From a bacterium (GTDB taxonomy: Bacteria > Patescibacteriota > Doudnabacteria > UBA920 > VMFF01): a stretch of 64,000 nt of DNA. The position numbers were made by a program, and so were the translations under genes. Shown here piece by piece: positions 572 through 55,186 of this stretch; the first letter of the stretch is position 1; each line of letters starts with the position of its first letter. Below the pieces are notes generated by a model. That model ran no database searches, was not told the DNA's origin, and saw only the letters and a list, made by a program, of their open reading frames with translations. Location: NCBI GenBank assembly GCA_021811585.1, contig JAJZOG010000005.1, positions 725-64,724 on the forward strand, read 5' to 3'.

Positions 572-678
572 CTGATAGTTAGTAGTTGGTAGTTAATAGT
601 TAATAGTTATGGCGATTTCGCCTACCAACTGCCACCTATTAACTGTCACCTATTAACTACCAACTACTAACTATCAAT
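572..678. repeat. Heptamer-array hairpin element 1, (TAGTTRR)n / (YYAACTA)n inverted
   Basis: The rpsS-rplV spacer (about 118 nt) is filled by a run of TAGTTGG/TAGTTAA units, then ATGGCGATTTCGCC, then a run of CTACCAA/CTACTAA units. The outer 27 nt of the two arms are perfectly complementary. Confidence 0.85.
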
Positions 679-682
679 TTTT

Positions 683-1267
683 ATGGCTAAGACAACGGCA
701 CAACAGAATATTCCAAGAACAGCGGCAGCCCATGCGCGCTACCTTAGAATTAGCCCGCGCAAAATGCGCTTGGTCACAAATTTGGTTAAGGGCATGTGGG
801 CGCAGGAAGCGCTCGGCCAGCTGCGCTTTACAAATAAGAAAGCGGCAAAATATGTGGCTGATGTCGTTCTCTCCGCAATGGCCAATGCCGAAAACAATTT
901 TAAATTGAAGAAAGAAAATTTGTATATCAAAACCATTACCTGCGACGGCGGGCCCAAGCTGAAAAGATACATGCCGCGCGCGCAGGGCAGGGCCACTGAA
1001 ATTCGCAGGCCAACAAGCCATTTGCATGTTATTCTTGAAGAGCGCACTGGCATGGGCGCTAAAAAGCGCAAGGCCATATTTGCGCAAAGTAAATCCAAGC
1101 CCGAGCTGGCTGTCAAAGAAGAGGGCTTGCCCGAAGCCCAAGGCCAAAAAGCAGCGGCTGAAAAAGGGAAGATACAACATTCGGAAATTCAGAAAACCGG
1201 AAAGCAGATGAAAGAGAGCAAGGCCATGCAAAAGCGAAGATTATTTAACAGGAAGAGCGGAAGTTAG
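683..1267 (+). CDS. rplV: 50S ribosomal protein L22 with an about 80-aa Lys/Ala/Glu-rich C-terminal extension
   Basis: The N-terminal 110 aa match uL22 (AHARYLRISPRKMRLV...GMWAQEAL...). It follows rpsS as in the canonical order. Confidence 0.9.
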   Translation: MAKTTAQQNIPRTAAAHARYLRISPRKMRLVTNLVKGMWAQEALGQLRFTNKKAAKYVADVVLSAMANAENNFKLKKENLYIKTITCDGGPKLKRYMPRAQGRATEIRRPTSHLHVILEERTGMGAKKRKAIFAQSKSKPELAVKEEGLPEAQGQKAAAEKGKIQHSEIQKTGKQMKESKAMQKRRLFNRKSGS

Positions 1268-1307
1268 CCCGCTCCGGCCAGGATCAACATTTTAAACTCT
1301 AATTACA

Positions 1308-2009
1308 ATGGGACATAAAATTTCACCAACAAGCTTGCGTTTGAATATTACAGATACTTGGAAATCCAGGTGGTTTTCGAAGAATAATTTCGCGCGCACT
1401 TTGCAGCAGGATGTCCTTATTCGCGAGTTTTTACTGAAAGAACTGAAAAAAGCGGGAATCGTAAGGATAGACATTGAGCGCCTGAATGACGGCGCGCTCA
1501 CGGTGATCATCAAATCCACAAAGCCGGGCATGATTATAGGAAAATCCGGCGCCGGAATAGAAGATCTTAAAAAGAAGTTAAAGAAGGCCGTCAATTTTAA
1601 AAAGGAAATTAAAATTAACATAGAAGAAGTGCGCGATGTCAATTTGCAGGCAGCTGTTATTGCCCAGAATATTGCGGAATCACTTGAAAAACGGGCGTCG
1701 CACAGGCGGCTTATGAAGCAATCGATAGAGCAGGTTATGAATGCCGGCGCAAAAGGAATAAAAATCGCCATAGGCGGGCGCTTGGGCGGTGCCGATATTG
1801 CGCGCACCGAATGGCTTACCCAGGGCAAACTCCCTTTGCATACTTTAAGGTCAAACATAGATTTTGCCCGCGCCACCGCTTTTACAACTTTCGGCACGAT
1901 TGGAGTGAAGGTCTGGATAAACAAAGGGGAAATTTTTGAAAAGAATGATAAGCGGGAAGAAAGGCCTTTTGCGCGCCCGGGATTTGCATCCAAAGGCCGC
2001 AAGGAATAA
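1308..2009 (+). CDS. rpsC: 30S ribosomal protein S3
   Basis: MGHKISPTSLRLNITDTWKSRWF... shows the KH and S3-C domain pattern. Confidence 0.95.
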   Translation: MGHKISPTSLRLNITDTWKSRWFSKNNFARTLQQDVLIREFLLKELKKAGIVRIDIERLNDGALTVIIKSTKPGMIIGKSGAGIEDLKKKLKKAVNFKKEIKINIEEVRDVNLQAAVIAQNIAESLEKRASHRRLMKQSIEQVMNAGAKGIKIAIGGRLGGADIARTEWLTQGKLPLHTLRSNIDFARATAFTTFGTIGVKVWINKGEIFEKNDKREERPFARPGFASKGRKE

Positions 2010-2039
2010 TTTTACAAATCCTATTTTGAATTTATTTAT

Positions 2040-2453
2040 ATGTTAATACCAAAGAAGCTCAAACATCGCAAACATCATCGAGGCCACACCAAAGGCAAAT
2101 CCATGGCAGGCAACAGCATTGCTTTTGGCAGTTTCGCGCTCAAGTCCACTGAAAATTCCTGGCTCACTGCAAAGCAAATAGAAGCGGCGCGGCGCGCAAT
2201 GACAAGGTATATACAGAGGGGCGGAAAAATTTGGATACGCGTTTTTGCGGACAAACCGGTAACCGTGCATGGCAACGAATCCCCGATGGGCACCGGCAAA
2301 GGCGCTGTCGACCACTTTGTGGCAGTTGTGAAGAAAGGCAAAATATTGTTTGAAATGGACGGCGTGGCGGAAATTCTGGCAAAAGAAGCAATGCGCCTGG
2401 CATCTTATAAGCTTCCGGTTAAAACCAAATTTATAACCAAGGACGGGCAATAA
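2040..2453 (+). CDS. rplP: 50S ribosomal protein L16
   Basis: [15 protein letters not shown]...[14 protein letters not shown] matches uL16. Confidence 0.95.
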
Positions 2454-2454
2454 T

Positions 2455-2649
2455 ATGAAAATTAAGGAACTTAGGTTAAAAACCGATGCCGAACTTAGGA
2501 GCGATCTTGAGATGTTGCGTGAAAAAACCAGGGCAATGCGGTTTAAAATTCTTTCCCAAGAGGCCAAAAATGTGAAAGAGGTCTGGGCTATAAAAAAAGA
2601 TATTGCCAAAATTTTGACGCTTTTGAGGGAGAGGGAATTAGCCAATTAA
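2455..2649 (+). CDS. rpmC: 50S ribosomal protein L29
   Basis: MKIKELRLKTDAELRSDLEMLREK; 64 aa, correct position. Confidence 0.9.
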   Translation: MKIKELRLKTDAELRSDLEMLREKTRAMRFKILSQEAKNVKEVWAIKKDIAKILTLLRERELAN

Positions 2650-2653
2650 TAAT

Positions 2654-2893
2654 ATGGAAAAAATCAGAAGAATAAAAACCGGAATAATTGTTTCGGACAA
2701 GATGGATAAGACCGTTGTTGTGAGGGTTGATAGTGTCAGAATGCATCCGAAATACAAGAAAACCTATAAGGTTTCCAAGAAATTTAAGGCGCACGATGAA
2801 GATAACCGGTTCCACCTCGGAGATAAAGTGGAAATTCAGGAAGTGCGGCCGATCTCGAAAGACAAGCATTTTAAGGTTTTAAGAAAAGTATAA
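2654..2893 (+). CDS. rpsQ: 30S ribosomal protein S17
   Basis: GIIVSDKMDKTVVVRVDSVRMHPKYKK shows the uS17 OB-fold signature. Confidence 0.95.
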   Translation: MEKIRRIKTGIIVSDKMDKTVVVRVDSVRMHPKYKKTYKVSKKFKAHDEDNRFHLGDKVEIQEVRPISKDKHFKVLRKV

Positions 2894-2899
2894 TATTAT

Positions 2900-3271
2900 A
2901 TGCTACAAGTACGATCATGGCTTAAAATTGCAGATAACACAGGCGCGAAAATCGTCGGGGTATTTTCCGTGAACGGGAAAAATTCCAACAGGTTTGCGCG
3001 GCTTGGAGATGTGGTTGCCTGCTCGGTGAAAGAAGCGGCTCCAAAGGGCCAAGTGAAAAAAGGCGATAAAGTTTATGCCGTGATAGTGCGCACGCGCAAA
3101 GAAGTGCGCAGAAAAGACGGCTCTTACATCCGTTTCGACGATAATGCCGGGGTTTTGGTGGATAAAAACAGCTTGGAGCCAAAAGGCACGCGCATTTTCG
3201 GGCCGATTCCAAGAGAGCTTCGCGACAAGGGTTTCACAAAAATTATCAGTTTGGCGCCGGAGGTTATTTAA
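2900..3271 (+). CDS. rplN: 50S ribosomal protein L14
   Basis: [17 protein letters not shown]... is the canonical uL14 start. Confidence 0.95.
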
Positions 3272-3305
3272 ATGCTTGATTCCAATTTCGAAATTATATA
3301 AGTTT

Positions 3306-3632
3306 ATGAACAATCTAAATTTTAAAAAAGGCGATACGGTTTCAGTTTTGCAGGGCAAAGACAAAGGCAAAACAGGAAAGATAATTGAAGTTGACCGCAA
3401 AAACAGAAAAGTTGTTGTGGAAGGTCTGAACATCCATCACAAATTTAAAAAAGCGACAATCGGCACAACAGGAACCCAGGCAGGGCAGAAGATTTCTTTT
3501 CCGGCTCCAATGCTTTGTTCGAAGCTGATCTTGCTCTGCCCCAGCTGCAATAAGCCAACCAGAGTGGCGCATAATTTTTTGGAAAACGGCGCCAAGCAGA
3601 GAATTTGCAAAAAATGCGGAAAGGCGATATAA
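3306..3632 (+). CDS. rplX: 50S ribosomal protein L24 (KOW) with a C-terminal C4 zinc-ribbon extension
   Basis: Start moved to ATG 3306 (MNNLNFKKGDTVSVLQGKDKGKTGKII = uL24 KOW). The C-terminus is ...LLCPSCNKPTRVAHNFLENGAKQRICKKCGKAI (CxxC-N17-CxxC). Confidence 0.85.
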   Translation: MNNLNFKKGDTVSVLQGKDKGKTGKIIEVDRKNRKVVVEGLNIHHKFKKATIGTTGTQAGQKISFPAPMLCSKLILLCPSCNKPTRVAHNFLENGAKQRICKKCGKAI

Positions 3633-3636
3633 AACC

Positions 3637-4176
3637 ATGCAACGACTTAAAGAAAAATATCATAAGGAAGTAAGGCCTGCGCTTAAAAAGAAATTTGCTT
3701 TGGAAAATTCCATGGCAGTGCCGAAAGTGCTTAAGGTGGTTATTAATGCCGGCGTTGGCAAAACTTTGAAAGACCCCAAATATTTGGATGCGATTATCGC
3801 AGATTTAAAAACCATTACCGGCCAGCAGCCCGTTAAGACCATTGCACGCAAATCAATCGCCGGGTTTAAGATCCGCGAAGGGCAAGTTATTGGCGTAACA
3901 GTTACCTTGCGCGGGCAAAGAATGTACGATTTCCTGGATAAGCTTGTGAATATTACCCTTCCGCGCGTACGCGATTTCCGAGGCATCAGCGCAAAGGGTT
4001 TTGACGGCCGCGGCAATTATAATCTCGGCATTAAGGAACAGCTTGTTTTTCCGGAAATTTCCGAAGAAAGCATTGAGCATACGTTTGGATTTGAGATTTC
4101 CGTTGCCACAAATGCTGGCAACAATGAAAGAGGCAAAGAACTCTTAAAATCCCTGGGCTTTCCTTTTGCCGATTAA
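3637..4176 (+). CDS. rplE: 50S ribosomal protein L5
   Basis: MQRLKEKYHKEVRPALKKKF...VINAGVG matches uL5. Confidence 0.95.
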   Translation: MQRLKEKYHKEVRPALKKKFALENSMAVPKVLKVVINAGVGKTLKDPKYLDAIIADLKTITGQQPVKTIARKSIAGFKIREGQVIGVTVTLRGQRMYDFLDKLVNITLPRVRDFRGISAKGFDGRGNYNLGIKEQLVFPEISEESIEHTFGFEISVATNAGNNERGKELLKSLGFPFAD

Positions 4177-4190
4177 CCCCAATGCCTGTT

Positions 4191-4306
4191 TCCAACTCCC
4201 AACTCCCACCTATCAACTCCCAACTCCCAACTACTATCTACCAACTATTATCTACCAACTACCAACTACCAACTACTAACTACTAACTATCAATCACTAA
4301 CCACCA
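4191..4306. repeat. Heptamer-array element 2, one orientation only, (CCAACTM)n
   Basis: TCCAACTCCCAACTCCCACCTATCAACTCCCAACTCCCAACTACTATCTACCAACTA... with strict 7-nt periodicity. It fills the rplE-rpsH spacer. Confidence 0.85.
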
Positions 4307-4310
4307 ATTT

Positions 4311-4706
4311 ATGTTTACCGATCCAATTTCAGACATGTTAACAAGAATACGAAATGCGGCAGCTGCCAAAAAAGCAGAGGCAATTATGCCGTATTCCAAG
4401 CTGAAGCACGGCCTCGCGGACATCATGCTCGAAGAGGGTTATATTTCCGGAGTGGCTGTGCGCGAAAGCGGCTCGTTTAAGCAATTGGAGGTAAAGCTAA
4501 AGTATGATAAAGACGGAGGTGCGATTATAATGGGCATAAAGAGAATCAGTAAGCCGGGGCAGAGAATTTACGTTCCGGTTTCTGAAATCCCAAAATCAAA
4601 CGGAGGGCTTGGCATAACAATACTCTCCACTTCAAAGGGATTGATGACAGACCGCAAAGCCCGTAAGGAAAAGTATGGCGGCGAAGTAATTTGCCAATTA
4701 TGGTAA
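4311..4706 (+). CDS. rpsH: 30S ribosomal protein S8
   Basis: MFTDPISDMLTRIRNAAAAKK is the hallmark uS8 N-terminus. Confidence 0.95.
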   Translation: MFTDPISDMLTRIRNAAAAKKAEAIMPYSKLKHGLADIMLEEGYISGVAVRESGSFKQLEVKLKYDKDGGAIIMGIKRISKPGQRIYVPVSEIPKSNGGLGITILSTSKGLMTDRKARKEKYGGEVICQLW

Positions 4707-4715
4707 CCTTAACTC

Positions 4716-4800
4716 TTAATTCCCACCTACCAACTTCCAACTACCAACTATCATCTGCCAACTATCATCTATCAACTACCATCTATTAACTACCAACTAA
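4716..4800. repeat. Heptamer-array element 3, (CCAACTA / CCATCTA)n
   Basis: CCACCTACCAACTTCCAACTACCAACTATCATCTGCCAACTATCATCTATCAACTACCATCTATTAACTACCAACTAAC lies directly upstream of the rpsN ATG. Confidence 0.85.
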
Positions 4801-4801
4801 C

Positions 4802-4996
4802 ATGGCCAAGAAATCATTAATTGCAAAAGCGAAAAGATCGCGGATCAACCCCAAATTTAAGACCAGGGTTGTCAGGCGGTGCTGGAAATGCGGCCGCAAT
4901 CGCGGCTATATGCGCGATTTCGATTTGTGCAGAATTTGTTTCCGCGAGCTTGCTTCCAAAGGAGAAATCCCTGGAATTGTGAAATCGTCCTGGTAA
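4802..4996 (+). CDS. rpsN: 30S ribosomal protein S14 type Z (zinc-binding)
   Basis: 61 aa, ...[33 protein letters not shown] (CxxC...CxxC); close to Bacillus RpsZ. Confidence 0.95.
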
Positions 4997-5018
4997 ATTA
5001 ACGATAGTTTTTAAACAT

Positions 5019-5570
5019 ATGTCAAGAATTGGAAAAAAAATTGTTGTTCTCCCAAGCGGCGTGAAGGCCGAACTCAAGGATTTATCATTGGTTGTCACAG
5101 GGCCCAAAGGCAGCGTGGCGGTTTTGGTGCATCCGAAAGTTCATGTAAACATTGCCGAAAAGCAAATCACAGTGGATGTTGAGCATACGGAAAACAAACT
5201 GGAGAAATCCTTGTGGGGATTAACCCGTTCGCTTATTGCCAATGCCGTTCTAGGCGCGACTTCCGGGTTTGAAAAAAAATTGGAAATCAACGGCGTGGGT
5301 TTTCGCGGCGCAGTGGCAGGCGATAAAATTACATTAAGTTTGGGTTTTTCGCATCCAGTTGAAGTTCGGGTGCCAAAAGGCATTACCGCGGCCATAGAAA
5401 AAAATATCATCACCATCAGCGGAATAGACAAGCAGCTTGTGGGTGAATTTGCCGCCAAGATCCGCGGATTAAAAAAGCCGGAACCGTATAAAGGCAAGGG
5501 CATAAAATATATTGATGAAACCATTAGGCGCAAAGCCGGGAAAGTAATGAAAGCGGTTGGCGGCAAATAG
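5019..5570 (+). CDS. rplF: 50S ribosomal protein L6
   Basis: MSRIGKKIVVLPSGVKAELKD... shows the two-domain uL6 pattern. Confidence 0.95.
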   Translation: MSRIGKKIVVLPSGVKAELKDLSLVVTGPKGSVAVLVHPKVHVNIAEKQITVDVEHTENKLEKSLWGLTRSLIANAVLGATSGFEKKLEINGVGFRGAVAGDKITLSLGFSHPVEVRVPKGITAAIEKNIITISGIDKQLVGEFAAKIRGLKKPEPYKGKGIKYIDETIRRKAGKVMKAVGGK

Positions 5571-5574
5571 GCAA

Positions 5575-5719
5575 TCAACTACCATCTATCACCTACTAAG
5601 TCCTAACTACCATCTATCAACTACCAACTACCATATACCAACTACCGCCGCTCACCAACTATTAACTACCATCTATCAACCCCCAACTATCAACTACCAT
5701 CTACCAATTATCAACTACT
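5575..5719. repeat. Heptamer-array element 4, (CTACCAW / CTATCAA)n
   Basis: The roughly 145-nt rplF-rplR spacer consists of CAACTACCATCTATCACCTACTAAG...CTACCATCTACCAATTATCAACTACT. The six-frame ORF 5557-5856 that reads through it (TTIYHLLSPNYHL...) is an artefact. Confidence 0.85.
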
Positions 5720-6082
5720 ATGAACAATTTGAAGAAAAAAAATCAGAAAAAGCAAAGAAGGCACGCAAGGGTGCGTTCCAAGATATTCGGGACGTCGGCG
5801 TGTCCGCGCCTTGCGGTTTTCCGCGCGAACCAGCACATTTACGCGCAAATAATTGATGATCAAATCGGAAAAACCTTGGTTTCCGCGTCAAGCGCAGAGT
5901 TGAAAGCCGGCGCCAAGCAGACCAAGAAAACTGAAAAATCGGCGCAGGTGGGCGAACTGGTTGCCAAAAAAGCATTGGAAAAAAATATTTCCGAAGTTGT
6001 TTTTGACAGGGGCGGTTATCAGTATCATGGCAGGGTAAAAGCATTGGCAGAAGCCGCCAGGTCAGCGGGATTGAAATTTTAA
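5720..6082 (+). CDS. rplR: 50S ribosomal protein L18
   Basis: ...[18 protein letters not shown]...[19 protein letters not shown] matches uL18. Confidence 0.95.
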
Positions 6083-8402: not shown

Positions 8403-9077
8403 ATGTTCAAATACCAAGCAATTATTTTTATCGGTCCGCAAGGTTCCGGGAAAGGAACCCAAGCCCGGCTGTTGATACCGAAAATAAGCGCAGAGTACGT
8501 GGAAATGGGCTATGTTTTGCGCACGATTGCGGCAAGCGGGACGGCATTCGGCGACCAAATCAAGCAAACCATTGATGGCGGCAACCTTGTTTCGGACAAG
8601 ATTTTGGAAAAAATAATTACCGAGAAGCTTGCGACACTCTCGCCGGACGCCCCGGTAATTTTTGACGGCGTGCCAAGGATGCTCCATCAGGCGGAATTTT
8701 TGATCGCGGATTTAAAACGCCTTGGCCGCGGCGCAATCGCAACTATTTTTATAGATCTTCCGCGAGACGCGGGCATTCAAAGAATCTTGACGCGTTTTTC
8801 ATGCCAAAACTGCAAAGCCCCGAAAACTTATGCCGGAGACGACGCCGCCGCGTGCGCGCGTTGCGGCGGCGTGATGGTGCGCAGAGTTGACGATTCCAGC
8901 GAGGAAGCTGTGGAGCGGCGCCTGGATACTTACGAGAGGGAAACTTTGCCTGTTTTGGATTATCTGAAAACAACAACGGATTTTTTCACCATCGACGGCA
9001 GGCCTTCTGTGCCTGAGGTTGAAAAGCAAATAGATAATTGCCTGGAGATAGAGCATGCCAAAACGCCGAGCAATTAA
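8403..9077 (+). CDS. adk: Adenylate kinase, long form with zinc-finger LID
   Basis: IFIGPQGSGKGTQARLL P-loop. LID has CQNCKAPKTY...CARCGG (C4). Confidence 0.9.
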   Translation: MFKYQAIIFIGPQGSGKGTQARLLIPKISAEYVEMGYVLRTIAASGTAFGDQIKQTIDGGNLVSDKILEKIITEKLATLSPDAPVIFDGVPRMLHQAEFLIADLKRLGRGAIATIFIDLPRDAGIQRILTRFSCQNCKAPKTYAGDDAAACARCGGVMVRRVDDSSEEAVERRLDTYERETLPVLDYLKTTTDFFTIDGRPSVPEVEKQIDNCLEIEHAKTPSN

Positions 9078-9732
9078 AAATGCGCCCGCCAAAGATGCGC
9101 CGGCGCTTAATTTGATTTTTTTGGGCGATCCGGCCTCTGGAAAAGCCACCCAATCAGCGCGCATTATGCGCAAATTTCCGATGCACAGCGTTGATTTTGG
9201 AAAATTTTTGCGCACTGCCCAGCATTCCAAGAGCAAAAATCCAGTTTACATAAAAATCAGGCAAGCCATGCGTAGAACTTATAATTTAGGCAAACCCTTT
9301 CCCACAAATTTTGCGCGGGAATATTTTAAAAAACAAATTTTTAGCGTGCCGAAAAACAGGGGGATTCTTTTTGATGGCAATCCGAAAATGCTCGGGGAAG
9401 CCAGATTGGTCCGCAAATGGATGCAAAAAAGCGGCAGGACAAAAAATTCGGTTCTGGTTTTGTATTTGCATATACCTTACGGCGAGGCCTTGAGCAGAAT
9501 TTCCAAGCGAAAAGAAAAAATAAACGGCAAATATATACGCCGCAGCGATGATGATATTGCCGCGTTGAAGAACCGCGTCGAATATTTCAGGGTGCACATC
9601 CCCGCGGTTTTGAAATTTTTAGCCGGACATTATGCCTTCAAGAAAATAAGCGGGCTCGGCAGCCGCGCCGAAGTTTACCGGAGAATAGAAAAGGAGATAA
9701 ATGAGTTTAATAAAAGACGAAAAGGAAATTAA
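9055..9732 (+). CDS. Second, divergent adenylate/NMP-kinase family paralog
   Basis: LIFLGDPASGKATQSARI P-loop. Overlaps adk by 23 nt and map by 32 nt. No zinc finger. Confidence 0.6.
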   Translation: MPKRRAIKNAPAKDAPALNLIFLGDPASGKATQSARIMRKFPMHSVDFGKFLRTAQHSKSKNPVYIKIRQAMRRTYNLGKPFPTNFAREYFKKQIFSVPKNRGILFDGNPKMLGEARLVRKWMQKSGRTKNSVLVLYLHIPYGEALSRISKRKEKINGKYIRRSDDDIAALKNRVEYFRVHIPAVLKFLAGHYAFKKISGLGSRAEVYRRIEKEINEFNKRRKGN

Positions 9733-10459: not shown

Positions 10460-10655
10460 GGGTCCAACCCAATACCCCAACCTAAACCCCCAACCCAAAC
10501 CCCCAACCTAAACCCCTAATCCAAACCCCCAATCTAAGGATATTTATGCAATATATAAGGGAAACTCAATTAAAATATTATTAAAACACTTGCCTAAACA
10601 CCGCAATCGTGTCCTTAGATTGGGGTATTAGATTGGGGTATTGGGTTGGACCCGT
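10460..10655. repeat. TIR-bounded palindromic element: 21-bp perfect terminal inverted repeats enclosing (AACCYAAACCCCC)n 13-mer arrays and an AT-rich core
   Basis: GGGTCCAACCCAATACCCCAA at 10460-10480 is the exact reverse complement of TTGGGGTATTGGGTTGGACCC at 10635-10655. The left arm has 5.5 tandem 13-mers. The right arm has 2 units in the opposite orientation. Confidence 0.85.
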
Positions 10656-12443
10656 ATGAAAAAAACTAAAAATTTTAACCAATCTTGGGATCTTTCGGAG
10701 CTTTACAGTGGCGTGAATGATCCGAAGATATTTAAGGATTTGGCTGCTTTAGAAAAACGCGCGGAAAATTTCGAAAAGGAACATAAGGGCAAAGTGGCTG
10801 CCTATGGATTACCGCGGACACTCGCAGCAGTAAAAGAATTCGGCAAAATCCAGGAAAAACTACGTTTGCCCGTGGCTTTTGCTGAGCTTAGTTTTGCTGT
10901 TGACGGCGCAAATGTACAAATCAATTCCTTAAATCAAAAAGTCCAGGTGCAGTGCAGTGAAATACGCAACCATATAATCTTTTTTCCGCTTGAGCTGGGA
11001 AAGAATAAAAATCTCGCGGAGTTTGCAAAAAGCAAAAAGGCGCGGCCATTCAATATCCTTTTCAAAGATTTACTGGAAAATCGCAAATACCAGCTTTCGT
11101 TTGCCGAAGAGAAAATAATCAATATCAAAGCCACCACTTCTTCTGCCGGATGGATTCGGCTGCATGAAAAGCTGGAAAGCTCGCTGCGCATTAAATTAAA
11201 AAACAGTTTTGGAGAAATCAAGGAGCTTACTTTAGAGGAGGCCTTAAATTTTTCCCATTCGCCTAAAAGGCAGGAGCGCATTGCTGCTGCGCAGGGGATT
11301 TCGAACGCGTTGAAAGGCAATTTAGAAGTTTCTTCGCACATATATAATATGATTTTGCTCAATAAAGCTCGGGAAGATAAATTGCGCAATTGGCCATATC
11401 CCGAATCGCAGAGGCATGCCGCAAATTCTTTGAGTAAAAAGAGCGTGGATGCGCTGGCTGCTGCAACGCGGGAACATTTTGGCCTGGTTCCAAGATATTA
11501 CAAGCTCAAAAGGAAACTTTTGAAGTTAGACCGCCTTTTCGATTATGACAGGTATGCTCCGTTGCCGCAGAAGAGCGAAAGCAAATATACTTTTGAGCAG
11601 GCGGTCAAGGTTGTGCGGGCGGCATTCCACGCGTTTGATCCGGAATTCGAAAAATATTATTTGGATATTTTGGCTGCCGGGCATGTTGATGTCGTCCCGC
11701 GCAAAGGCAAACGCGCCGGCGCGTTTTGCGCTCACATGCCGCATCCGCATTTGCCGTATGTGCTTTTGAACCATGCGGGCAGCGGGAGGGATGTTGAAAC
11801 CCTTGCGCATGAGATGGGGCACGCTGTGCACGATTGTTTTGCCGAAAAGAATCCTTTTTTGGTAGCGCATCCGCCCTTGGCGCTTGCGGAAACGGCGAGC
11901 GTCTTTGGCGAGATGCTGGTATTTGAGTATTTGCTTGCGTCCGCCAAAACTAAAGCAGAACAGATTGCTTTGATTGCCGCGAAAATTGATATAATTTTTG
12001 CCACGATTCCCCGCCAAATATCCATGTTTTTTTTCGAACGCAAAGTGCATGATTTTGTCCGGCAAAACGGCGAGATCCCCGCGGAAAAAATAAATGAATT
12101 TTGGATGCAAATTCAAAGGGAAATGTTCGGCGACAGCGTGACCATCACTGAAAACTATTCTGTATGGTGGTCGTATATAATCCATTTCTTCGAGGTCCCG
12201 TTTTATACCTATGCTTATGCATTCGGAAATTTGTTGGTTTTTTCTTTATACGAACAATACAAAGAAGGCGCGCCAGGATTTGTGGAAAACTACAAAACCT
12301 TGCTTTCATTGGGCGGTGCAAAAACGCCTGCGCAGGCCTTGCAAACTTTCGGCTTTGATATAGAGAGAAAGGAATTTTGGCAAAGCGGCTTTAAAGTATT
12401 GGAAAAACTTATTGAACAGCTCGAATCCCTGTGCTATCATTAA
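10656..12443 (+). CDS. pepF: Oligoendopeptidase F (M3 family zinc metallopeptidase)
   Basis: HEMGHAVHD zinc motif. Length about 595 aa. Start moved to ATG 10656 (MKKTKNF) because the 10641 ATG lies inside the inverted repeat. Confidence 0.85.
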   Translation: MKKTKNFNQSWDLSELYSGVNDPKIFKDLAALEKRAENFEKEHKGKVAAYGLPRTLAAVKEFGKIQEKLRLPVAFAELSFAVDGANVQINSLNQKVQVQCSEIRNHIIFFPLELGKNKNLAEFAKSKKARPFNILFKDLLENRKYQLSFAEEKIINIKATTSSAGWIRLHEKLESSLRIKLKNSFGEIKELTLEEALNFSHSPKRQERIAAAQGISNALKGNLEVSSHIYNMILLNKAREDKLRNWPYPESQRHAANSLSKKSVDALAAATREHFGLVPRYYKLKRKLLKLDRLFDYDRYAPLPQKSESKYTFEQAVKVVRAAFHAFDPEFEKYYLDILAAGHVDVVPRKGKRAGAFCAHMPHPHLPYVLLNHAGSGRDVETLAHEMGHAVHDCFAEKNPFLVAHPPLALAETASVFGEMLVFEYLLASAKTKAEQIALIAAKIDIIFATIPRQISMFFFERKVHDFVRQNGEIPAEKINEFWMQIQREMFGDSVTITENYSVWWSYIIHFFEVPFYTYAYAFGNLLVFSLYEQYKEGAPGFVENYKTLLSLGGAKTPAQALQTFGFDIERKEFWQSGFKVLEKLIEQLESLCYH

Positions 12444-24020: not shown

Positions 24021-24078
24021 ATGGTAGTGGTAGTTGGTAGTTGGTAGATGGTAGATGGTAGATGGTAGTTGGTGTTGA
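24021..24078. repeat. Heptamer-array element 5, (GGTAGTTGG / GGTAGATGG)n in the opposite orientation to elements 2-4
   Basis: ATGGTAGTGGTAGTTGGTAGTTGGTAGATGGTAGATGGTAGATGGTAGTTGGTGTTGATA lies in the pgk-gpmI spacer. Confidence 0.85.
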
Positions 24079-24099
24079 TAATCGCATTTATTTTTATTT

Positions 24100-32273: not shown

Positions 32274-32390
32274 CTAGTTAATAGTTGGTAGTTAGTAGTT
32301 AATAGTTAGTAGTTGGTAGTTAATAGTTGGGGGGCGATCCATCTGCCACCTACCACCTACTAACTACTATCTACCAACTACCACTTATCC
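32274..32390. repeat. Heptamer-array hairpin element 6, inverted arms around a GGGGGGCGATCCATCTGCCACC core
   Basis: CTAGTTAATAGTTGGTAGTTAGTAGTTAATAGTTAGTAGTTGGTAGTTAATAGTTGG, then the core, then ACCTACCACCTACTAACTACTATCTACCAACTACCACTTATCC. Lies directly upstream of the frr ATG. Confidence 0.85.
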
Positions 32391-42946: not shown

Positions 42947-44221
42947 ATGCTGGACATAAAATTTATCCGTGAAAATCCGGAGGCAGTAAAACAGGGTGCG
43001 GCCGCGAAAAATGCGGACGTGGATGTTTATCGGGTAATTGAAATTGACGAGAAGCGCCGCTTGCTTTTGTCGCAGCTGGAATCCCTGCAGGCAACCAAAA
43101 ATTCCGTGTCCAAAGAAATTCCAAAACTTTCCCCCGCGGACCGCGAGGCAAAGATTTTGGAAATGAAAAACGTAGACGTGCAATCGGAAAAAGTGCGCGC
43201 CGAATTGGATGCCGCTGAAAAAGAATTTAACGCTCTGATGCTGAATATCCCGAACTTGCCGAAAGAAGACGTCAAGATAGGCAAGGATGACAGTGAAAAT
43301 TACGTTATTCGCACCGCAGGAGAACCAACCAGGTTTCCGTTCAAGCCCAAAGATTATATGGAATTGGGCGCTGCTTTGGATATAATCGATACCGAGCGTG
43401 CCGCAAAAACTTCGGGTGCGCGCTTTGGCTTCCTCAAAGGCGGCGGCGCGCTTTTGGAAATAGCCATTTTGAATTTCACAATCGCAAAGCTTTTAAAGCA
43501 CGGCTTCAAACTTATTTTGCCGCCGTACATGGTTAAAGAGGAAATCATGCGCGGCATGGGATATTTGGAACACGGCGGCATTGAAGAAGTGTACTATTTG
43601 GAGAAAGACGGCTTGTATTTGATAGGCACATCAGAGCAGGTCATCGGCGGAATGCATGCCGGAGAAATTTTAAAAGCAGAGGATTTGCCCCTTCGCTATG
43701 CGGGCTTTTCTTCGTGTTTCAGGCGCGAGGCGGGCTCTTATGGAAAAGATACCAAGGGAATTCTGCGCGTGCACCAGTTCGACAAAATTGAAATGTTTTC
43801 ATTCACAACTCCGCAAGAGAGCGATAAGGAGCATGATTTTTTGCTCTCCGTTGAAGAGGAACTAATGCGGGATCTGAAATTGCCTTACCAGGTTTTGGGA
43901 ATTTGCAGCGGAGATTTGGGCGACAGCGCCGCGCGCAAATACGACATTGAAACCTGGATACCTTCCCAGGAAAAATACCGCGAAACCCATTCCACTTCCA
44001 CGACAACGGATTTTCAATCCCGGCGGCTGAACATCCGCTATAAAAACAAAGAAACAGGCAAAAACGAGCTCGTGCACATACTTAACGGTACGGCTTTTGC
44101 AATGGGCAGAATTATTATTGCCATTATTGAAAATTATCAGCAGGAAGACGGCTCGGTAAGAATTCCCGAAGTTCTCCAGCCGTACATGTTCGGCGTGAAT
44201 AAGCTGGTAGTTGGTAGGTAG
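42947..44221 (+). CDS. serS: Seryl-tRNA synthetase
   Basis: MLDIKFIRENPEAVKQ N-terminal coiled coil. Class II core ...FRREAGSYGKDTKGILRVHQF... Confidence 0.9.
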   Translation: MLDIKFIRENPEAVKQGAAAKNADVDVYRVIEIDEKRRLLLSQLESLQATKNSVSKEIPKLSPADREAKILEMKNVDVQSEKVRAELDAAEKEFNALMLNIPNLPKEDVKIGKDDSENYVIRTAGEPTRFPFKPKDYMELGAALDIIDTERAAKTSGARFGFLKGGGALLEIAILNFTIAKLLKHGFKLILPPYMVKEEIMRGMGYLEHGGIEEVYYLEKDGLYLIGTSEQVIGGMHAGEILKAEDLPLRYAGFSSCFRREAGSYGKDTKGILRVHQFDKIEMFSFTTPQESDKEHDFLLSVEEELMRDLKLPYQVLGICSGDLGDSAARKYDIETWIPSQEKYRETHSTSTTTDFQSRRLNIRYKNKETGKNELVHILNGTAFAMGRIIIAIIENYQQEDGSVRIPEVLQPYMFGVNKLVVGR

Positions 44222-44408
44222 TAGGTAGTAGCTGATAGTTGGTAGTTAGTAGGTGGTAGTTGGTAGTTGGTAGGTAGTAGTTGGTAGTTGGTAGGTAGTA
44301 GTTGATAGTTGGTAGGTAGTAGTTGATAGTTAGTAGTTAGTAGGTGGTAGTTAGAAGGGAATTTAGTTTGCGTCGCTGTTTTTATCTTAACTACCATCTA
44401 TTATCTAC
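44213..44408. repeat. Heptamer-array element 7 (longest): about 140 nt of GGTAGTTGG units with a 21-nt super-period, plus a short inverted CTACCATCTA segment
   Basis: GGTAGGTAGTAGTTGGTAGTT / GGTAGGTAGTAGTTGATAGTT repeated. It yields the spurious minus-strand ORF 44137-44397 (PTNYQLL)n. Starts at the serS stop codon. Confidence 0.85.
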
Positions 44409-44424
44409 TATTAATAGGAATTTT

Positions 44425-45447
44425 ATGGATACGCGGAGGTTTAATAATCCTTCATACAAACGGCAAATTAACGCGGTGCGCCATTACAGGCGCAATGTTG
44501 TTCCGCGCCCGGAAAGCGCGCTTGGAAGAATTTTCGGCGCCATTGGCCTGGGCAGCGTTTTTCGCAAAATTTGTGCTGCGCTGGTTTTGTTTTTGGCAAT
44601 ATATCTGGTTTATTTTGCCAAATTCCTGCAAATTACGCAGGCGCAAATCTCCGGTGCAGACCAAAAGCAGGAAGCGCAAATTTCTTCGCGTCTCGCTGAT
44701 TATGAAAGGACTTTTAATTTTATTTTCCCGCAAAAAAATATTCTCTTTTTCAGTTCCAAAGGGTTTTCCAAATATCTGCTCGGAAGCGACGTTTCCATTT
44801 CTTCGGTTGCAGGCATCCGGCGCAAACCATTCCATTCTTTGTCAATAACAGTCGTGCAAAAAGTTCCGGCTTTTGTCCTGCAAAGCAACGGGAATTTTTT
44901 TATTTTAAATTCCGACGGCTCGCTTGGCATGGAACTGCCCCCGGGTGATCCGCAAATTTCCGCATACCCCAAAGTCATCGATACCGCGGCTGAAACCGTT
45001 TCGGCCGGGGAAAAATTTTTGCCGCAAAATGAATTTGGCTTTTTATCGTATATGCGGGAAAATTTTCAAAAAGACCTCCGAACAGCCGTGGATCATTTTG
45101 AAATTCCCGGAAAAAACTCCGGTTACCTTACCTTGTATTTGCAAACAGGGGCAAGAATTTATTTTAACAGCGCCGATGATCCGCAAATTTACATGCAAAA
45201 GCTTTTGGGCTTGTGGAATAGCTTGTCAGCAGACCAGCAAAAAAATTTGGCCTATTTTGATTTGCGTTTTAACCCGGATGCTTACGGGTGTTTCCTGGGT
45301 TCTGCGTGCGCCGTCTCGGCTGCCCCGCAATTGCCGCAAGGGCAGCAAAACGGGGCGCAAACGCAATCTCCGGACACTACGCCTTCACAGCCGCCGGCTT
45401 TGCCTGCGCCTGCGCCTGGTTCTGCCTCAGGCAGCACGAATTTGTGA
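44425..45447 (+). CDS. Hypothetical membrane-anchored protein with a Gln/Pro-rich C-terminal tail (FtsQ/DivIB-like topology, unverified)
   Basis: Start placed at ATG 44425 (MDTRRFNNPSYKR...), downstream of the repeat. One TM (IFGAIGLGSVFRKICAALVLFLAIYLVYFA), then an extracytoplasmic domain. Confidence 0.5.
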   Translation: MDTRRFNNPSYKRQINAVRHYRRNVVPRPESALGRIFGAIGLGSVFRKICAALVLFLAIYLVYFAKFLQITQAQISGADQKQEAQISSRLADYERTFNFIFPQKNILFFSSKGFSKYLLGSDVSISSVAGIRRKPFHSLSITVVQKVPAFVLQSNGNFFILNSDGSLGMELPPGDPQISAYPKVIDTAAETVSAGEKFLPQNEFGFLSYMRENFQKDLRTAVDHFEIPGKNSGYLTLYLQTGARIYFNSADDPQIYMQKLLGLWNSLSADQQKNLAYFDLRFNPDAYGCFLGSACAVSAAPQLPQGQQNGAQTQSPDTTPSQPPALPAPAPGSASGSTNL

Positions 45448-51426: not shown

Positions 51427-51430
51427 TGCT

Positions 51431-52549
51431 ATGCAATATGTAGCGCTGTTTGTTTTGTCCTGCCTCATAGGCGTTTTGCTTGTTCCTCTTGTAAAACGGC
51501 TGGCTTTCCGTTTGGGCGCAGTGGATAATCCCGATATTCCGCGCAAAATCCACAAAACGCCAATTCCGCTTTTAGGCGGATTGGCAATTTATGCCAGCTT
51601 CACCGTTTCTCTTATTGTTTATGTTTTTGTGCTTCATCCGGATTACCACATTGTGCCCTTAAAATTTTTCCTGGGCATAATTTTCGGCGGGCTGGTTTTG
51701 ATGGTCGGCGGCGTTTTAGACGATAAATTCAACCTTGCCCCCAAGTATCAAATTATTCCCACTGCAATCGCTGTTTTGATTCTTATTTTTTCAGGCGTTG
51801 GCGTGGGCATCACCGCAATTTCAAATCCTTTCAATTCCGCGCACCCCATAAATTTGGCTTTCAGTATTTTAGGCATTCCGTTTTCAGCGATTTTTGTTTT
51901 TTTGTTTATGCTCGGCATGGTTTATACGACAAAATTTTTGGATGGCATGGACGGCCTTGCCGGCGGCATTTCTTTCATTGCCGGCGCGACGTTGTTTTTT
52001 CTTTCCCTGACTCCAAAAGTGAACCAGAGCATCACCGCAAGCATGACAATAATTTTTTGCGGAGCGGTTTTCGCTTTTTTGATTTTCAATTTTAACCCGG
52101 CTTCGATTTTTTTGGGAGAATCAGGCAGCACGTTCGTGGGCTTTGCTTTGGGTGCTATTTCCATTTTCCTGGGAGGGAAAATTGCTACCGCGGTTTTGGT
52201 CATGGGCATTCCGATTATGGACGTGGCCTGGGTCATTGTCCGGCGCATTTGGTACGGCAACTCGCCTTTTAAGGCCGACAGGAAGCATTTGCATTTTCGT
52301 TTGCTGGACATCGGCTTTTCCCAAAAAGAAACAGTTTTAATTTTATATTTGATTGCCGCCAGTTTCGGGATAGTGGCAATTTTTTTGCAATCACTGGGAA
52401 AACTCATTTCCTTGCTGATCCTTTTGGCCATAATGATTGTTTTAGCCATTACCACTGTTTTGATTTATAAAAAAAGATATCTTGTCGCTTCCGGCGCTGC
52501 TGCACAAAATTCGGGCAATAGCGAAAGCCGCGACGAATTGACCAAATAG
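51431..52549 (+). CDS. Polyprenyl-phosphate N-acetylhexosamine-1-phosphate transferase (WecA/TagO/MraY family)
   Basis: ...FLDGMDGLAGG.... Multi-TM, 372 aa. Lies in a glycosylation cluster rather than the mur cluster. Confidence 0.75.
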   Translation: MQYVALFVLSCLIGVLLVPLVKRLAFRLGAVDNPDIPRKIHKTPIPLLGGLAIYASFTVSLIVYVFVLHPDYHIVPLKFFLGIIFGGLVLMVGGVLDDKFNLAPKYQIIPTAIAVLILIFSGVGVGITAISNPFNSAHPINLAFSILGIPFSAIFVFLFMLGMVYTTKFLDGMDGLAGGISFIAGATLFFLSLTPKVNQSITASMTIIFCGAVFAFLIFNFNPASIFLGESGSTFVGFALGAISIFLGGKIATAVLVMGIPIMDVAWVIVRRIWYGNSPFKADRKHLHFRLLDIGFSQKETVLILYLIAASFGIVAIFLQSLGKLISLLILLAIMIVLAITTVLIYKKRYLVASGAAAQNSGNSESRDELTK

Positions 52550-52615
52550 CCGTTATTTGTTATTATTAGCGGGCTGAAACCAAAGGTTAAGCATTTTTTA
52601 ATTAAACTGAAAAAT

Positions 52616-52924
52616 ATGAACTTGGCTGTAATTGAAACAGGCGGGAAGCAGTATCTGGTTTCTCCTGACTCTAAAATACAAGTGGAAAAAATAAGCGGCA
52701 ATGCCGGCGATGTTGTCTCGCTTGATAAAGTTTTATTTAAAGCCGGCGATTCCTCGGTGGAAGTTGGCAAACCGTTTTTGAAGGATGCTGTTGTGCAGGC
52801 CAAGATTTTAAAGCAAGGCAGAAGCAAAAAAATTCTTGTTTTCAAATACAAGGCAAAATCAAAGTACAGGCGCAAGCAAGGCCACAGGCAGCATTATACC
52901 GAACTGTTAATCACAAAAATTTAA
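52616..52924 (+). CDS. rplU: 50S ribosomal protein L21
   Basis: MNLAVIETGGKQYLVSPDSKIQVEKI... matches bL21. No rpmA follows. Confidence 0.9.
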   Translation: MNLAVIETGGKQYLVSPDSKIQVEKISGNAGDVVSLDKVLFKAGDSSVEVGKPFLKDAVVQAKILKQGRSKKILVFKYKAKSKYRRKQGHRQHYTELLITKI

Positions 52925-52946
52925 AAACGGCTTTGGCCGTTTTTTG
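52924..52946 (+). terminator. Rho-independent terminator immediately after rplU
   Basis: AAAACGGC-tttg-GCCGTTTT followed by a T-run. Confidence 0.7.
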
Positions 52947-53037
52947 TTTTCCACAAGGGTGGATAATTCCGCGTGTTGAGCCCTGTTTGCCTATCTGTTA
53001 ATATGGATTTAAGATTTATTTAATAAAGGGCTTTCAT

Positions 53038-54441
53038 ATGGAAAACCTCGCCACGACCAGCAGAATTCCCCCGCAGAATCTTGAGGCAGAAGCAGGGGTT
53101 TTAGGGTCTTTAATGCTTGATAAGGACGCTATTATTAAAATTGCGGATATTTTGCATAGCGAGGATTTTTATGATGAAAAGCATAAGGCCATTTATTTGG
53201 CAATGCTGGAGCTCTATGAGAAAAATGTTTCCATAGACATACTCACTGTTTCAAATCTTTTGGATGAGCAAAGAAAATTGGAAATGATCGGAGGATCAAG
53301 CTACCTCGCGACCCTGGTCAATTCCGTGCCAACGGCCGCGCACGTAATTCATTACGCGACAATTATCAGGCGCAAGGGGACATTGCGCCGCCTCATAAAC
53401 GCGGCTAATGAAATTACTAACATCAGTTATAACGAAGATGGGGCTATTGAAGGCATCTTGGATCAGGCGGAACAAAAACTTTTCGGGGTTTCCCAGAAAT
53501 TTTTGAAGCAGAATTTCATTCCATTAACTCAGGTTTTGCACGAAACCTTTGAGCGCCTTGACGAGCTGCACAAGAATAAAGGGCAGCTGCGCGGGCTGGC
53601 TACTGGTTTTGCGGATTTGGATAATTTCCTCGGTGGCCTTCAGAAATCAGACCTTGTGGTTCTTGCTGCCAGGCCTTCAATGGGAAAAACATCTTTGGCT
53701 TTGGACATTGCCAGGCATGTTGGCGTGAACCTGAAAAGGTGCGTAGGCCTTTTTTCGTTGGAAATGAGCAAGGACCAGCTCGCGGATCGCCTGCTTTCTT
53801 CCGAATCAGACGTTAATTTATGGAAATTGCGCACAGGCCATCTTTCGGATGACGGACAGAACAACGATTTTCAGCGCATAGGCGAAGCCATGGGACGGCT
53901 TTCAGAGGCGCCAATTTTTATAGACGATACTGCCGGCGCCAGTGTCATGGAAATTCGCACCAAAGCGCGCAGGTTGCAGGCAGAACACGATCTTGGCATG
54001 GTTATAATTGATTATTTGCAGCTCATGCAGGGCCATAATCCGGAAAACAGAGTGCAAGAGGTTTCGGAAATTTCCAGGTCTCTTAAGGGCCTTGCCAGAG
54101 AATTAAATGTCCCTGTGCTGGCGCTTTCGCAGCTGAACCGCGCTGTGGAGACAAGGCCTGATAAAAGGCCGCTTCTTGCCGATTTGCGCGAATCAGGTTC
54201 AATTGAACAGGATGCAGATGTTGTTATGTTTATTTATAGGGAAGATATGTATAAGGGAAAAGAATCACAGAAGCCGCACATAGCCGAAATTCAAATTGCC
54301 AAGCACAGGAACGGAGCAACCGGCAGGGTGGAATTGTATTTTGACAGCGAACGAACCAGTTTTAGAAATTTGGACAAGACCTTTTCAGATGCAATGCCAA
54401 GCCCGGCTGAAATAATGGCTCCGCAAGACGACGATATATAA
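53038..54441 (+). CDS. dnaB: Replicative DNA helicase DnaB
   Basis: N-terminal domain, then Walker A ARPSMGKTSLAL, then ...VIIDYLQLM.... No intein. Confidence 0.95.
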   Translation: MENLATTSRIPPQNLEAEAGVLGSLMLDKDAIIKIADILHSEDFYDEKHKAIYLAMLELYEKNVSIDILTVSNLLDEQRKLEMIGGSSYLATLVNSVPTAAHVIHYATIIRRKGTLRRLINAANEITNISYNEDGAIEGILDQAEQKLFGVSQKFLKQNFIPLTQVLHETFERLDELHKNKGQLRGLATGFADLDNFLGGLQKSDLVVLAARPSMGKTSLALDIARHVGVNLKRCVGLFSLEMSKDQLADRLLSSESDVNLWKLRTGHLSDDGQNNDFQRIGEAMGRLSEAPIFIDDTAGASVMEIRTKARRLQAEHDLGMVIIDYLQLMQGHNPENRVQEVSEISRSLKGLARELNVPVLALSQLNRAVETRPDKRPLLADLRESGSIEQDADVVMFIYREDMYKGKESQKPHIAEIQIAKHRNGATGRVELYFDSERTSFRNLDKTFSDAMPSPAEIMAPQDDDI

Positions 54442-54445
54442 AATT

Positions 54446-55042
54446 ATGATTCGCCTCCCCAAATCAATAGAAAAACTTATAAATGAATTTTCAAAATTGC
54501 CGGGCATAGGCCAAAAAACAGCCCACCGCCTGGCATTTTATCTTTTAAAGCGTCCGGAAGTTGATCTGCAAATTTTTTCCGAAGCACTGGCGAATTTAAA
54601 GAAAGAAGTTTTTTTTTGTGCGGTTTGCCGCAACATGTCGGATACTGAAGTTTGTGCGGTGTGTGCCGATGCTTCGCGCGACAACGGCATTATCTGCGTT
54701 GTTGAGGAACCGCTGGATGCCCAGGCAATAGAACAAACAGGGTTTCGCGGCACTTATCATATTTTAGGCGGTGTAATTTCCCCGCTGGACGGCATTGGGC
54801 CCCAGCAGCTTAATATTGATTCTCTGGTTGGCAGGATTAAAGGGAAAAGCATCAAGGAAGTTATTTTAGCAACAAATCCGTCTTTGGAAGGGGAAGTGAC
54901 ATCCATGCAGCTGGTTGAGCTTATAAGGCCTTTGGGCGTCAAAATAACGCGCCTGGCGCGAGGCCTGCCTGTTGGCGGGGACATCGAATACTCTGATGAG
55001 GTGACTATTTCCAGGGCCATGGAAGGCAGAAAAGAAATATAG
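54446..55042 (+). CDS. recR: Recombination protein RecR
   Basis: LPGIGQKTAHRLAFYLL HhH. C4 zinc finger CAVCRNMSDTEVCAVC. Toprim domain. Confidence 0.95.
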   Translation: MIRLPKSIEKLINEFSKLPGIGQKTAHRLAFYLLKRPEVDLQIFSEALANLKKEVFFCAVCRNMSDTEVCAVCADASRDNGIICVVEEPLDAQAIEQTGFRGTYHILGGVISPLDGIGPQQLNIDSLVGRIKGKSIKEVILATNPSLEGEVTSMQLVELIRPLGVKITRLARGLPVGGDIEYSDEVTISRAMEGRKEI

Positions 55043-55043
55043 A

Positions 55044-55186
55044 TGATAGTTGGTAGATGGTAGATGGTAGTTGGGGGCCGATCCAACTACTAACTACTAA
55101 CTATCAACTATTTTTTATCGCCAACTACTAACTACCAACTACTAACTACCAACTATTAGCTACCAACTACTAATTGCCAACCCGCA
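55044..55186. repeat. Heptamer-array hairpin element 8, inverted arms around GGGGGCCGATCC, then a further direct CCAACTA array
   Basis: GATAGTTGGTAGATGGTAGATGGTAGTTGG, then GGGCCGATCC, then AACTACTAACTACTAACTATCAAC, then ...CCAACTACTAACTACCAACTACTAACTACCAACTATTAGCTACCAACTACTAATTGCCAA. Starts 2 nt after the recR stop. Confidence 0.85.

Follow-up and report, generated by a model that had tools for sequence, protein, structure and literature searches.

Heptanucleotide repeat arrays in intercistronic spacers of a Doudnabacteria-like genome: a long-described repeat type, recently gained

What kind of repeat fills the spacers of a ribosomal protein operon, how did it come to be there, and does it matter to the genes on either side? 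These questions are raised by the window analysed here, a stretch of 64,000 nucleotides (GenBank assembly GCA_021811585.1, contig JAJZOG010000005.1, positions 725 to 64,724 of the forward strand), in which arrays of 7-nt units (TAGTTGG, or its complement CCAACTA) occupy spacers of the S10-spc ribosomal protein cluster and of other core operons. The nearest named homologues of its SecY and PBP2 proteins are those of Candidatus Doudnabacteria/Patescibacteria. The arrays belong to the long-described bacterial heptanucleotide tandem repeats and do not form a new class, and they are a recent, lineage-specific gain rather than conserved operon architecture. The explanation that we consider probable is that arrays of the short tandemly repeated repetitive (STRR) type underwent a recent burst in one Doudnabacteria-like lineage, that effects on gene expression filtered them, and that they have no essential function.

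Array loci and their absence from relatives

Direct reading of the window gave near-continuous, in-phase 7-nt units at eight loci (E1-E8). Tandem Repeats Finder (TRF) reported period 7 at all eight, plus higher-order periods of 14, 21 and 28, and a period-7 autocorrelation scan of the whole 64 kb recovered these loci and nothing else. A first-pass annotation of the window had counted nine loci; eight exist, each where it had been placed or shifted by a few bases, and its 'ninth' was the second sub-array of the recR locus. The limits of two loci required correction: the first base of the serS array is 44205, within the final five codons of the gene, and that of the recR array is 55040, this array supplying the recR stop codon. 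The identities of the flanking genes (rpsS-rplV, rplE-rpsH, rpsH-rpsN, rplF-rplR, pgk-gpmI, frr, serS and recR) were supported by Pfam, in agreement with the names first assigned. The features are listed below.

567..677, + strand: E1, rpsS-rplV spacer (TRF 567-677); TAGTTRR arm 567-609, centre GGCGATTTCGCC, CCAACTA-type arm 622-677
4189..4308, + strand: E2, rplE-rpsH spacer (TRF 4192-4308); pure CCAACTA-type direct array
4716..4800, + strand: E3, rpsH-rpsN spacer (TRF 4723-4799); CCAACTA-type direct array reaching the rpsN ATG
5575..5719, + strand: E4, rplF-rplR spacer (TRF 5576-5718, period 7 and 28); CCAACTA/CCATCTA/TCAACTA direct array, ~20 units, up to the rplR ATG
24021..24078, + strand: E5, pgk-gpmI spacer (TRF 24021-24077); TAGTTGG/TAGATGG direct array starting 2 nt past the pgk stop
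32274..32390, + strand: E6, spacer upstream of frr (TRF 32275-32384); TAGTTRR arm 32274-32330, centre GGGGCGATCC, CCACCTA/CTAACTA arm 32339-32390
44205..44412, + strand: E7, serS 3' end and spacer (TRF 44205-44358, TAGTTGG/TAGGTAG, ~22 units); short inverted CCATCTA-type arm 44388-44412; next ATG at 44425
55039..55118, + strand: E8a, recR 3' end; TAGATGG/TAGTTGG arm, centre GGGCCGATCC, CCAACTA-type arm
55121..55181, + strand: E8b, second direct CCAACTA/CTAACTA array, between the E8a hairpin and the intrinsic terminator (TRF 55040-55181 spans E8a and E8b)
55181..55205, + strand: canonical intrinsic terminator of the recR transcription unit, not a repeat unit; CCCGCAAAAGCGGG followed by a T run

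The eight loci comprise 12 sub-arrays, all of them intergenic or touching gene ends alone, which bears out their description as non-coding. Reading frames beside the arrays are intact, and the arrays fit exactly between stop and start codons. E7 encodes the last five codons and the TAG stop of serS (...NKLVVGR*, versus ...SEIKR* and ...KEIKK* in relatives), and the TAG stop of recR is likewise array sequence, belonging to the E8a arm. Arrays account for 966 of the 3,093 nt of intergenic DNA in the window and fill 8 of the 18 spacers of at least 75 nt.

Unit parsing gave the consensus TAG[T 63%, A 24%, G 8%]T[G 81%, A 18%][G 63%, A 35%], or its complement. Of the units, TAGTTGG is the most frequent; TAGATGG comes next, then TAGTTAA/TAGTTAG and TAGTTGA. 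All 36 copies of TAGTTGG in the window lie inside arrays, compared with 3.8 +/- 1.9 copies in dinucleotide shuffles, and the three-unit pattern TAGTTRRTAGTTRRTAGTT occurs 19 times against an expectation of 0. Together with the TRF and autocorrelation results, this enrichment confirmed a dispersed, degenerate family with a 7-nt period. The order of units is unlike from locus to locus, so the arrays are not an assembly duplication, as the first reading had already argued. The portion of the genome examined was ~83 kb (the window plus ~19 kb of flanking contig), and no further arrays were found in the ~9.7 kb upstream and ~9.5 kb downstream of the window.

The reality of the arrays was also assessed against other assemblies. 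The window sequence is contained in a 220-kb contig of the NCBI metagenome-assembled genome GCA_027365855.1, and the ENA/MEGAHIT-type contigs ERZ27237454 and ERZ27233565 and Logan contigs of SRR13221994 are 100% identical to it through the arrays, although these assemblies may share reads. Several short contigs end within arrays (window positions 599, 4264 and 4293) or within a second repeat described below (10488). Thus, the arrays hinder assembly, and the assemblers that pass through them agree. An origin as assembly artefact is therefore unlikely. No copy-number variant of an array was found among the five database sequences compared for this purpose (L002, L127, L128, L129 and L130), all 100% identical to the window.

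Orthologous regions were compared in five relatives. The closest is a sister genome represented by one 134-kb contig (L123 and L131; SecY 90% and PBP2 78% identical to the window), followed by L124 (SecY 74%), L125/L126 (SecY 71%) and L132 (PBP2 70%). No period-7 array was present in the orthologous regions of these relatives (15-22 kb). At six orthologous junctions the closest relatives carry short, AT-rich spacers without arrays, and the relatives' spacers at the junctions examined measure 3-57 nt, which agrees with the earlier statement that such spacers are normally very short. The lengths are as follows.

S19-L22 spacer: 118 nt in the window; 21-30 nt in relatives (L124, L125)
L5-S8 spacer: 134 nt in the window; 27 nt (L123)
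S8-S14 spacer: 95 nt in the window; 24 nt, AT-rich (L123, read from sequence)
L6-L18 spacer: 149 nt in the window; 38 nt (L123) and 3 nt (L124)
BNR protein-frr spacer: 131 nt in the window; 10 nt (L131) and 9 nt (L132)
serS-next gene spacer: 203 nt in the window; 32 nt (L131) and 1 nt (L132)

The presence/absence comparison proposed in the first-pass annotation thus gave a clear outcome: because the orthologous junctions of close relatives are free of arrays, the arrays were gained recently in this lineage.

Relation to described repeats

Knowledge of heptamer arrays such as STRR and TAACTGA dates back to about 1990. The present family had been thought to fall outside the described repeat classes; this view did not survive comparison, as the arrays match STRR, long simple sequence repeats (LSSRs) and TAACTGA-type heptamers. 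A scan for three consecutive TAGTTRR units, with one genome taken per species, found them in at least 120 loci of other genomes, most of the matches being embedded in longer period-7 arrays. Among the matches listed, 34 were cyanobacterial, 45 belonged to Bacteroidota/Ignavibacteria/Chlorobium and 4 to Patescibacteria, with the rest scattered (classified from record titles). TAGTTRR arrays also occur in viral contigs. In L095 and L100, two of the four Patescibacteria matches, a short array of CCAACTA units (C-type) abuts an ATG. Three cyanobacterial loci (L021 1-143, L083 730-838 and L076 1907-2001) contain TAGTTGA/CAACTAT arrays that grade into other heptamers, including CAACTGT and AATGACC, within one tract, and TAGTTGA/TAGTTGG arrays of cyanobacteria lie immediately beside other heptamer arrays. 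This gradation suggests unit drift inside arrays and a common superfamily with an AACT core.

Cyanobacterial STRR, 7-bp units repeated in tandem, give rise to hairpins between the cistrons of an operon, for example hupS-hupL, and a role in transcript stability or translational coupling has been proposed for them (PMC2670836). A preprint on Nostoc presents reporter data suggesting that heptamer arrays modulate expression (bioRxiv 10.1101/2022.06.06.494920). The arrays of the window resemble STRR in their head-to-tail 7-nt units kept in phase, their dispersed intergenic copies in both orientations, and their inverted arrays able to form hairpins between cistrons. They differ in that the host is a Doudnabacteria-like member of the Patescibacteria and not a cyanobacterium, and in being unusually degenerate and concentrated in the S10-spc cluster. 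The unit set (TAGTTGG, TAGTTAG, TAGTTAA and TAGATGG) also differs from the classical STRR1-3 units. Presence or absence of arrays between close relatives is clear; length steps of 7 nt were unseen, the assemblies compared being all identical.

TAACTGA direct repeats were described by MacGregor (2015) from intergenic DNA of marine Beggiatoaceae, some Cyanobacteria and Bacteroidetes; they lie in one orientation just upstream of start codons lacking a Shine-Dalgarno (SD) sequence, including sites inside ribosomal protein operons; close relatives lack them, and they cause breaks in contigs (PMC4679880). The arrays of the window are likewise heptamer direct repeats of fixed orientation upstream of SD-less starts and within ribosomal protein operons, missing from close relatives and disruptive to assembly. 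Their AACT core lies on the sense strand in all seven start-proximal sub-arrays, which contain no SD core. In contrast to the TAACTGA repeats, which mostly have 2-6 units, the present arrays have 8-22 and contain no G, and half of them have an inverted partner with which they form hairpins, as against only one indirect repeat reported in BOGUAY. TAACTGA itself does not occur on the + strand of the window; two isolated complements are present, and there is no tandem copy on either strand.

According to the summary of the Mrazek 2007 survey in PMC4679880, heptamers dominate the LSSRs, and polymerase slippage was proposed as their source. As far as that summary goes, the present arrays resemble LSSRs in unit length (5-11 nt, mainly heptamers), sporadic phylogenetic distribution and slippage as the proposed generator. 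However, LSSRs are a statistical category, which does not predict the orientation rule, hairpin modules or shared hairpin centres seen here.

Heptamer arrays of this kind in Patescibacteria were not found in the literature searched. An Rfam scan of the whole window gave no match at the gathering threshold, and a tRNA/tmRNA scan found none. A clustered regularly interspaced short palindromic repeat (CRISPR) array, already rejected by the first-pass annotation, was ruled out by the contiguous 7-nt units without spacers. Coding-repeat and phase-variation readings were ruled out by structure and context.

Orientation, hairpins and origin

An SD core (GGAG, GAGG or AGGA at -18 to -6) precedes only 10 of 69 genes, several of these cores falling within an upstream gene that overlaps the next. 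The leaders are rich in A and U, their last six positions containing 4-13% G, and no SD core occurs in the leaders formed by the start-proximal arrays. Since SD cores are few and leaders A/U-rich and G-poor, translation initiation here is, on sequence grounds, largely independent of SD pairing. The native spacers of the sister genome are likewise AT-rich and without SD sequences. In Bacteroidota and Cyanobacteria, SD-independent initiation depends on unstructured leaders. The Omega leader of tobacco mosaic virus (TMV), which is G-free and CAA-rich, reportedly supports SD-independent initiation mediated by ribosomal protein S1 in E. coli. The likeness to the present arrays (G-free, unstructured and CA-rich in both) is a functional analogy and not homology.

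The arrays take two forms on the + strand, where every array-adjacent gene also lies. The G-type (TAGTTGG...) has TAG in all three frames, and the C-type (CCAACTA...) is G-free. Seven sub-arrays come to an end no more than 15 nt from a start codon, and every one of these is C-type; each of the five G-type sub-arrays overlaps the stop codon upstream or begins no more than 11 nt from it. At mixed loci the order is always G-type, centre, C-type, producing a hairpin. E5 is the sole G-type array facing a start codon, and at this locus an AT-rich leader of 21 nt (24079-24099) is retained before the gpmI ATG. The longest G-free runs on the + strand measure 124 nt (rpsH), 71 nt (rplR), 51 nt (frr) and 46 nt (rpsN) and end exactly at the AT of the ATG; in shuffled sequence, the longest G-free run was ~35 nt on average and 54 nt at maximum. 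Being G-free, the C-type arrays therefore lack AUG, GUG, UUG and SD-like GGAGG and can form neither G-C nor G-U pairs. The minimum free energy of E2, E3 and E4 (95-149 nt) was 0 kcal/mol. The G-type would be tolerated beside stop codons because it carries TAG in all three frames.

Orientation was also examined in the other genomes. An excess of TAG-bearing arrays downstream of stop codons (56:19) fell to 22:26 once the stop had to precede the array; the initial excess was artefactual, since an array ends an open frame by itself. Just upstream of long open reading frames (ORFs), AACTA on the sense strand was favoured about 2-3 to 1, by 17-20 to 6-11 (p = 0.03 to 0.15), among the matches listed.

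These results bear on the reading that the arrays are neutral simple-sequence junk or an assembly artefact, without any orientation logic. Their low complexity, the breakage of short-read contigs within them and the wide occurrence of TAGTTRR arrays, viral contigs included, would all fit such a reading. However, three assemblies agree base for base across the arrays, placement from stop to start is precise with intact flanking frames, and seven of seven start-proximal arrays are G-free with runs ending at the ATG (two-sided binomial ~0.016, hairpin arms not being independent). We therefore regard this reading as very unlikely.

The first-pass annotation had also proposed that arrays occur in both orientations and that three inverted arrays form hairpins, and both points were supported. 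E1 has 37-nt arms of 92% complementarity and an RNA fold of -50.5 kcal/mol (z -11.6); an A5 run lies to the left of its hairpin and a U5 run to the right, and the hairpin ends 6 nt before the rplV ATG. The folds of E6 (-46.2 kcal/mol, z -5.05) and E8a (-40.6 kcal/mol, z -9.4) are also stable, the former hairpin ending 4 nt before the frr ATG and the latter being directly followed by U6. The serS array E7 forms a partial hairpin (-59.2 kcal/mol, z -4.9), and E5 gave no significant fold. The centres of E6, E8a and E1 are similar, sharing GG(C/G)CGAT, a hint that one hairpin module served as the source of another and that they did not arise separately.

At the recR 3' end, the G-type arm of E8 has two alternative partners, 55083-55118 (78% complementary) or 55121-55156 (83%), followed by the canonical terminator. 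The E8a hairpin with its U6 resembles a terminator, and because this is succeeded by a canonical terminator after the second C-type array, the recR 3' end looks like a tandem terminator pair. The arrangement at 55039-55205 could work either as two terminators in tandem or as a switch. In simple scans for promoters and terminators, only the canonical terminator at 55181 was flagged, and none of the arrays.

The hairpins invite comparison with repetitive extragenic palindromic (REP) sequences, bacterial interspersed mosaic elements (BIMEs) and miniature inverted-repeat transposable elements (MITEs), which are also short, dispersed, intergenic and hairpin-forming and, as the present arrays presumably are, co-transcribed in operons. 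In a mobile-element reading, a hairpin module (TAGTTGG arm, GGSCGATCC centre, CCAACTA arm) would be moved by a transposase encoded elsewhere, such as a REP-associated tyrosine transposase (RAYT) or an IS200-like enzyme, and the direct arrays would be decayed or slipped half-elements. Dispersed copies missing from orthologous sites of relatives, three modules with one arm order and similar centres, and the serS and recR stop codons overwritten by insertions are consistent with this reading. The tetranucleotide GTAG, which is conserved in REPs, is also present in every unit that comes after a G. However, no target-site duplications were seen on either side of E1, E6 or E8a, where the A-run on the left and the T-run on the right simply lengthen the stem. 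Termini, length and consensus are not fixed, the order of units in the arms varies between copies, and four of the eight loci are pure direct arrays. The internal structure is that of a microsatellite and not of a unique palindrome. The search for a co-occurring transposase, which the first-pass annotation had suggested together with its REP/MITE-like candidate, returned no transposase, RAYT/Y1 enzyme or recombinase among the annotated genes of the window and its ~19 kb of flanks. A search with the hairpin centre joined to its arm (TAGTTGGGGGSCGATCC) gave 41 matches in JGI metagenomes. All were chance matches in unrelated sequence, outside any heptamer array, and thus gave no sign of the hairpin module as a mobile unit elsewhere. 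A mobile-element origin is accordingly judged improbable.

The orientation rule relative to start codons could alternatively reflect arrays of binding sites for a sequence-specific protein that binds single-stranded RNA or DNA (S1, cold-shock or RNA recognition motif (RRM) type), forming a post-transcriptional regulon over translation and central-metabolism genes. A binding-site regulon has been proposed for the TAACTGA repeats, which share the AACT core on the sense strand with equal polarity (PMC4679880). The array-bearing genes are highly expressed core genes, and the reporter effects in Nostoc (bioRxiv 10.1101/2022.06.06.494920) are in line with this proposal. A conceivable binder of single-stranded heptamer RNA is a 106-aa RNA-binding protein with an RRM_1 domain encoded at 59210-59530, although it is only a candidate. 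Moreover, equivalent essential operons function array-free in the closest relatives, the units vary in sequence and their copy number is erratic (4 to 22), and neither the G-rich orientation nor the hairpins would present an equal single-stranded site. For these reasons, we consider a dedicated binding-site system unlikely.

In the explanation that we prefer, a recent burst of STRR-type arrays under an expression filter, a 7-nt unit TAGNTRR would have been amplified through replication slippage and block duplication, the latter indicated by the higher-order periods. Copies would have spread between intergenic sites, partly as inverted two-arm modules, and a selective filter would have kept them only where, and in the orientation in which, expression was unharmed. 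On the start-codon side, the G-free CCAACTA form would survive on the mRNA strand; on the stop-codon side, the TAGTTGG form would be tolerated, having overwritten the stops of serS and recR. In an SD-independent organism, G-free arrays might be acceptable, and possibly favourable, as unstructured leaders, by analogy with an Omega-like standby site of the S1 type. The inverted pairs would add stable hairpins, which could act at 3' ends or as terminators, as at recR, or have a stabilising role between cistrons.

Several points weigh against this explanation. Slippage alone leaves unexplained both the spread of one unit to eight separate spacers and the GG(C/G)CGAT shared by three hairpin centres. 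No copy-number polymorphism was seen, the assemblies compared being identical, so that slippage dynamics were unobserved. A hairpin of -50 kcal/mol ending 6 nt before the rplV start is hard to square with a purely expression-friendly filter. Furthermore, as all adjacent genes lie on the + strand, orientation relative to transcription is inseparable from orientation relative to replication, and the orientation bias in other genomes, among the matches listed, is modest (p values as above).

A bolder proposal would make the G-free CCAACUA arrays a selected, modular 'clean leader' that recruits ribosomes via S1 or an RRM/cold-shock (Csp)-type protein in non-SD lineages and uncouples the S10-spc cistrons. 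The AACT-core heptamers (YAACTRN: TAACTGA, CAACTAC, CAACTGT and others) of Cyanobacteria, Bacteroidota, Beggiatoaceae and Patescibacteria would then represent one cross-phylum, horizontally spread cis-element system with a shared mechanism. This proposal is speculative, and we doubt that it is correct. The streamlined, tiny genome of a member of the Candidate Phyla Radiation, with arrays newly inside its most conserved operon, and its array-free sister together constitute a clean natural experiment, and the sharp orientation rule leads to testable predictions on SD-independent initiation and on selection in intercistronic spacers. In practical terms, such arrays break short-read assemblies and can mislead gene callers.

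Gene calls and neighbouring features

Public gene calls near the arrays appear wrong. S8 (4311-4706) is called from an internal ATG as 106 aa, versus 131 aa with the canonical MFTDPISDMLTRIRNA N-terminus, and S14 (4802-4996) is uncalled. For L18 (5720-6082), the public call falls 17 aa short of the 120-aa ORF identified here, and either start may be correct. Repeat-filled spacers probably mislead start-site prediction.

The gene order rplE-rpsH-rpsN (Zn-type)-rplF has S8 and S14 swapped relative to the canonical L5-S14-S8-L6 (window 3637-5570). The swap is common to the sister L123 (1086-2854), and the more distant Doudnabacteria-like L124 (6777-8542) and L125 have the canonical order. A link between the arrays and the swap was ruled out: the array-free sister has it too, and it is therefore unrelated to them. 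L22 (683-1267) has 194 aa, compared with a bacterial norm of ~110 aa; its length in relatives (190-198 aa) indicates a lineage trait and not an effect of the neighbouring array. Two neighbouring, overlapping adenylate kinase genes (8403-9077 and 9055-9732, both PF00406) lie downstream of secY, a duplication kept in L123 and L125.

A second repeat element occupies the map-pepF junction (10460-10657). It consists of C-rich 13-nt units (CCAACCCAAACCC), an AT-rich centre of ~75 nt and an inverted G-rich partner overlapping the pepF start. Its RNA fold reaches -74.2 kcal/mol (z -8.3), and its arm order is opposite to that of the heptamer hairpins. In the sister genome, 26 nt separate the two genes, and the break of one Logan contig falls within the element.

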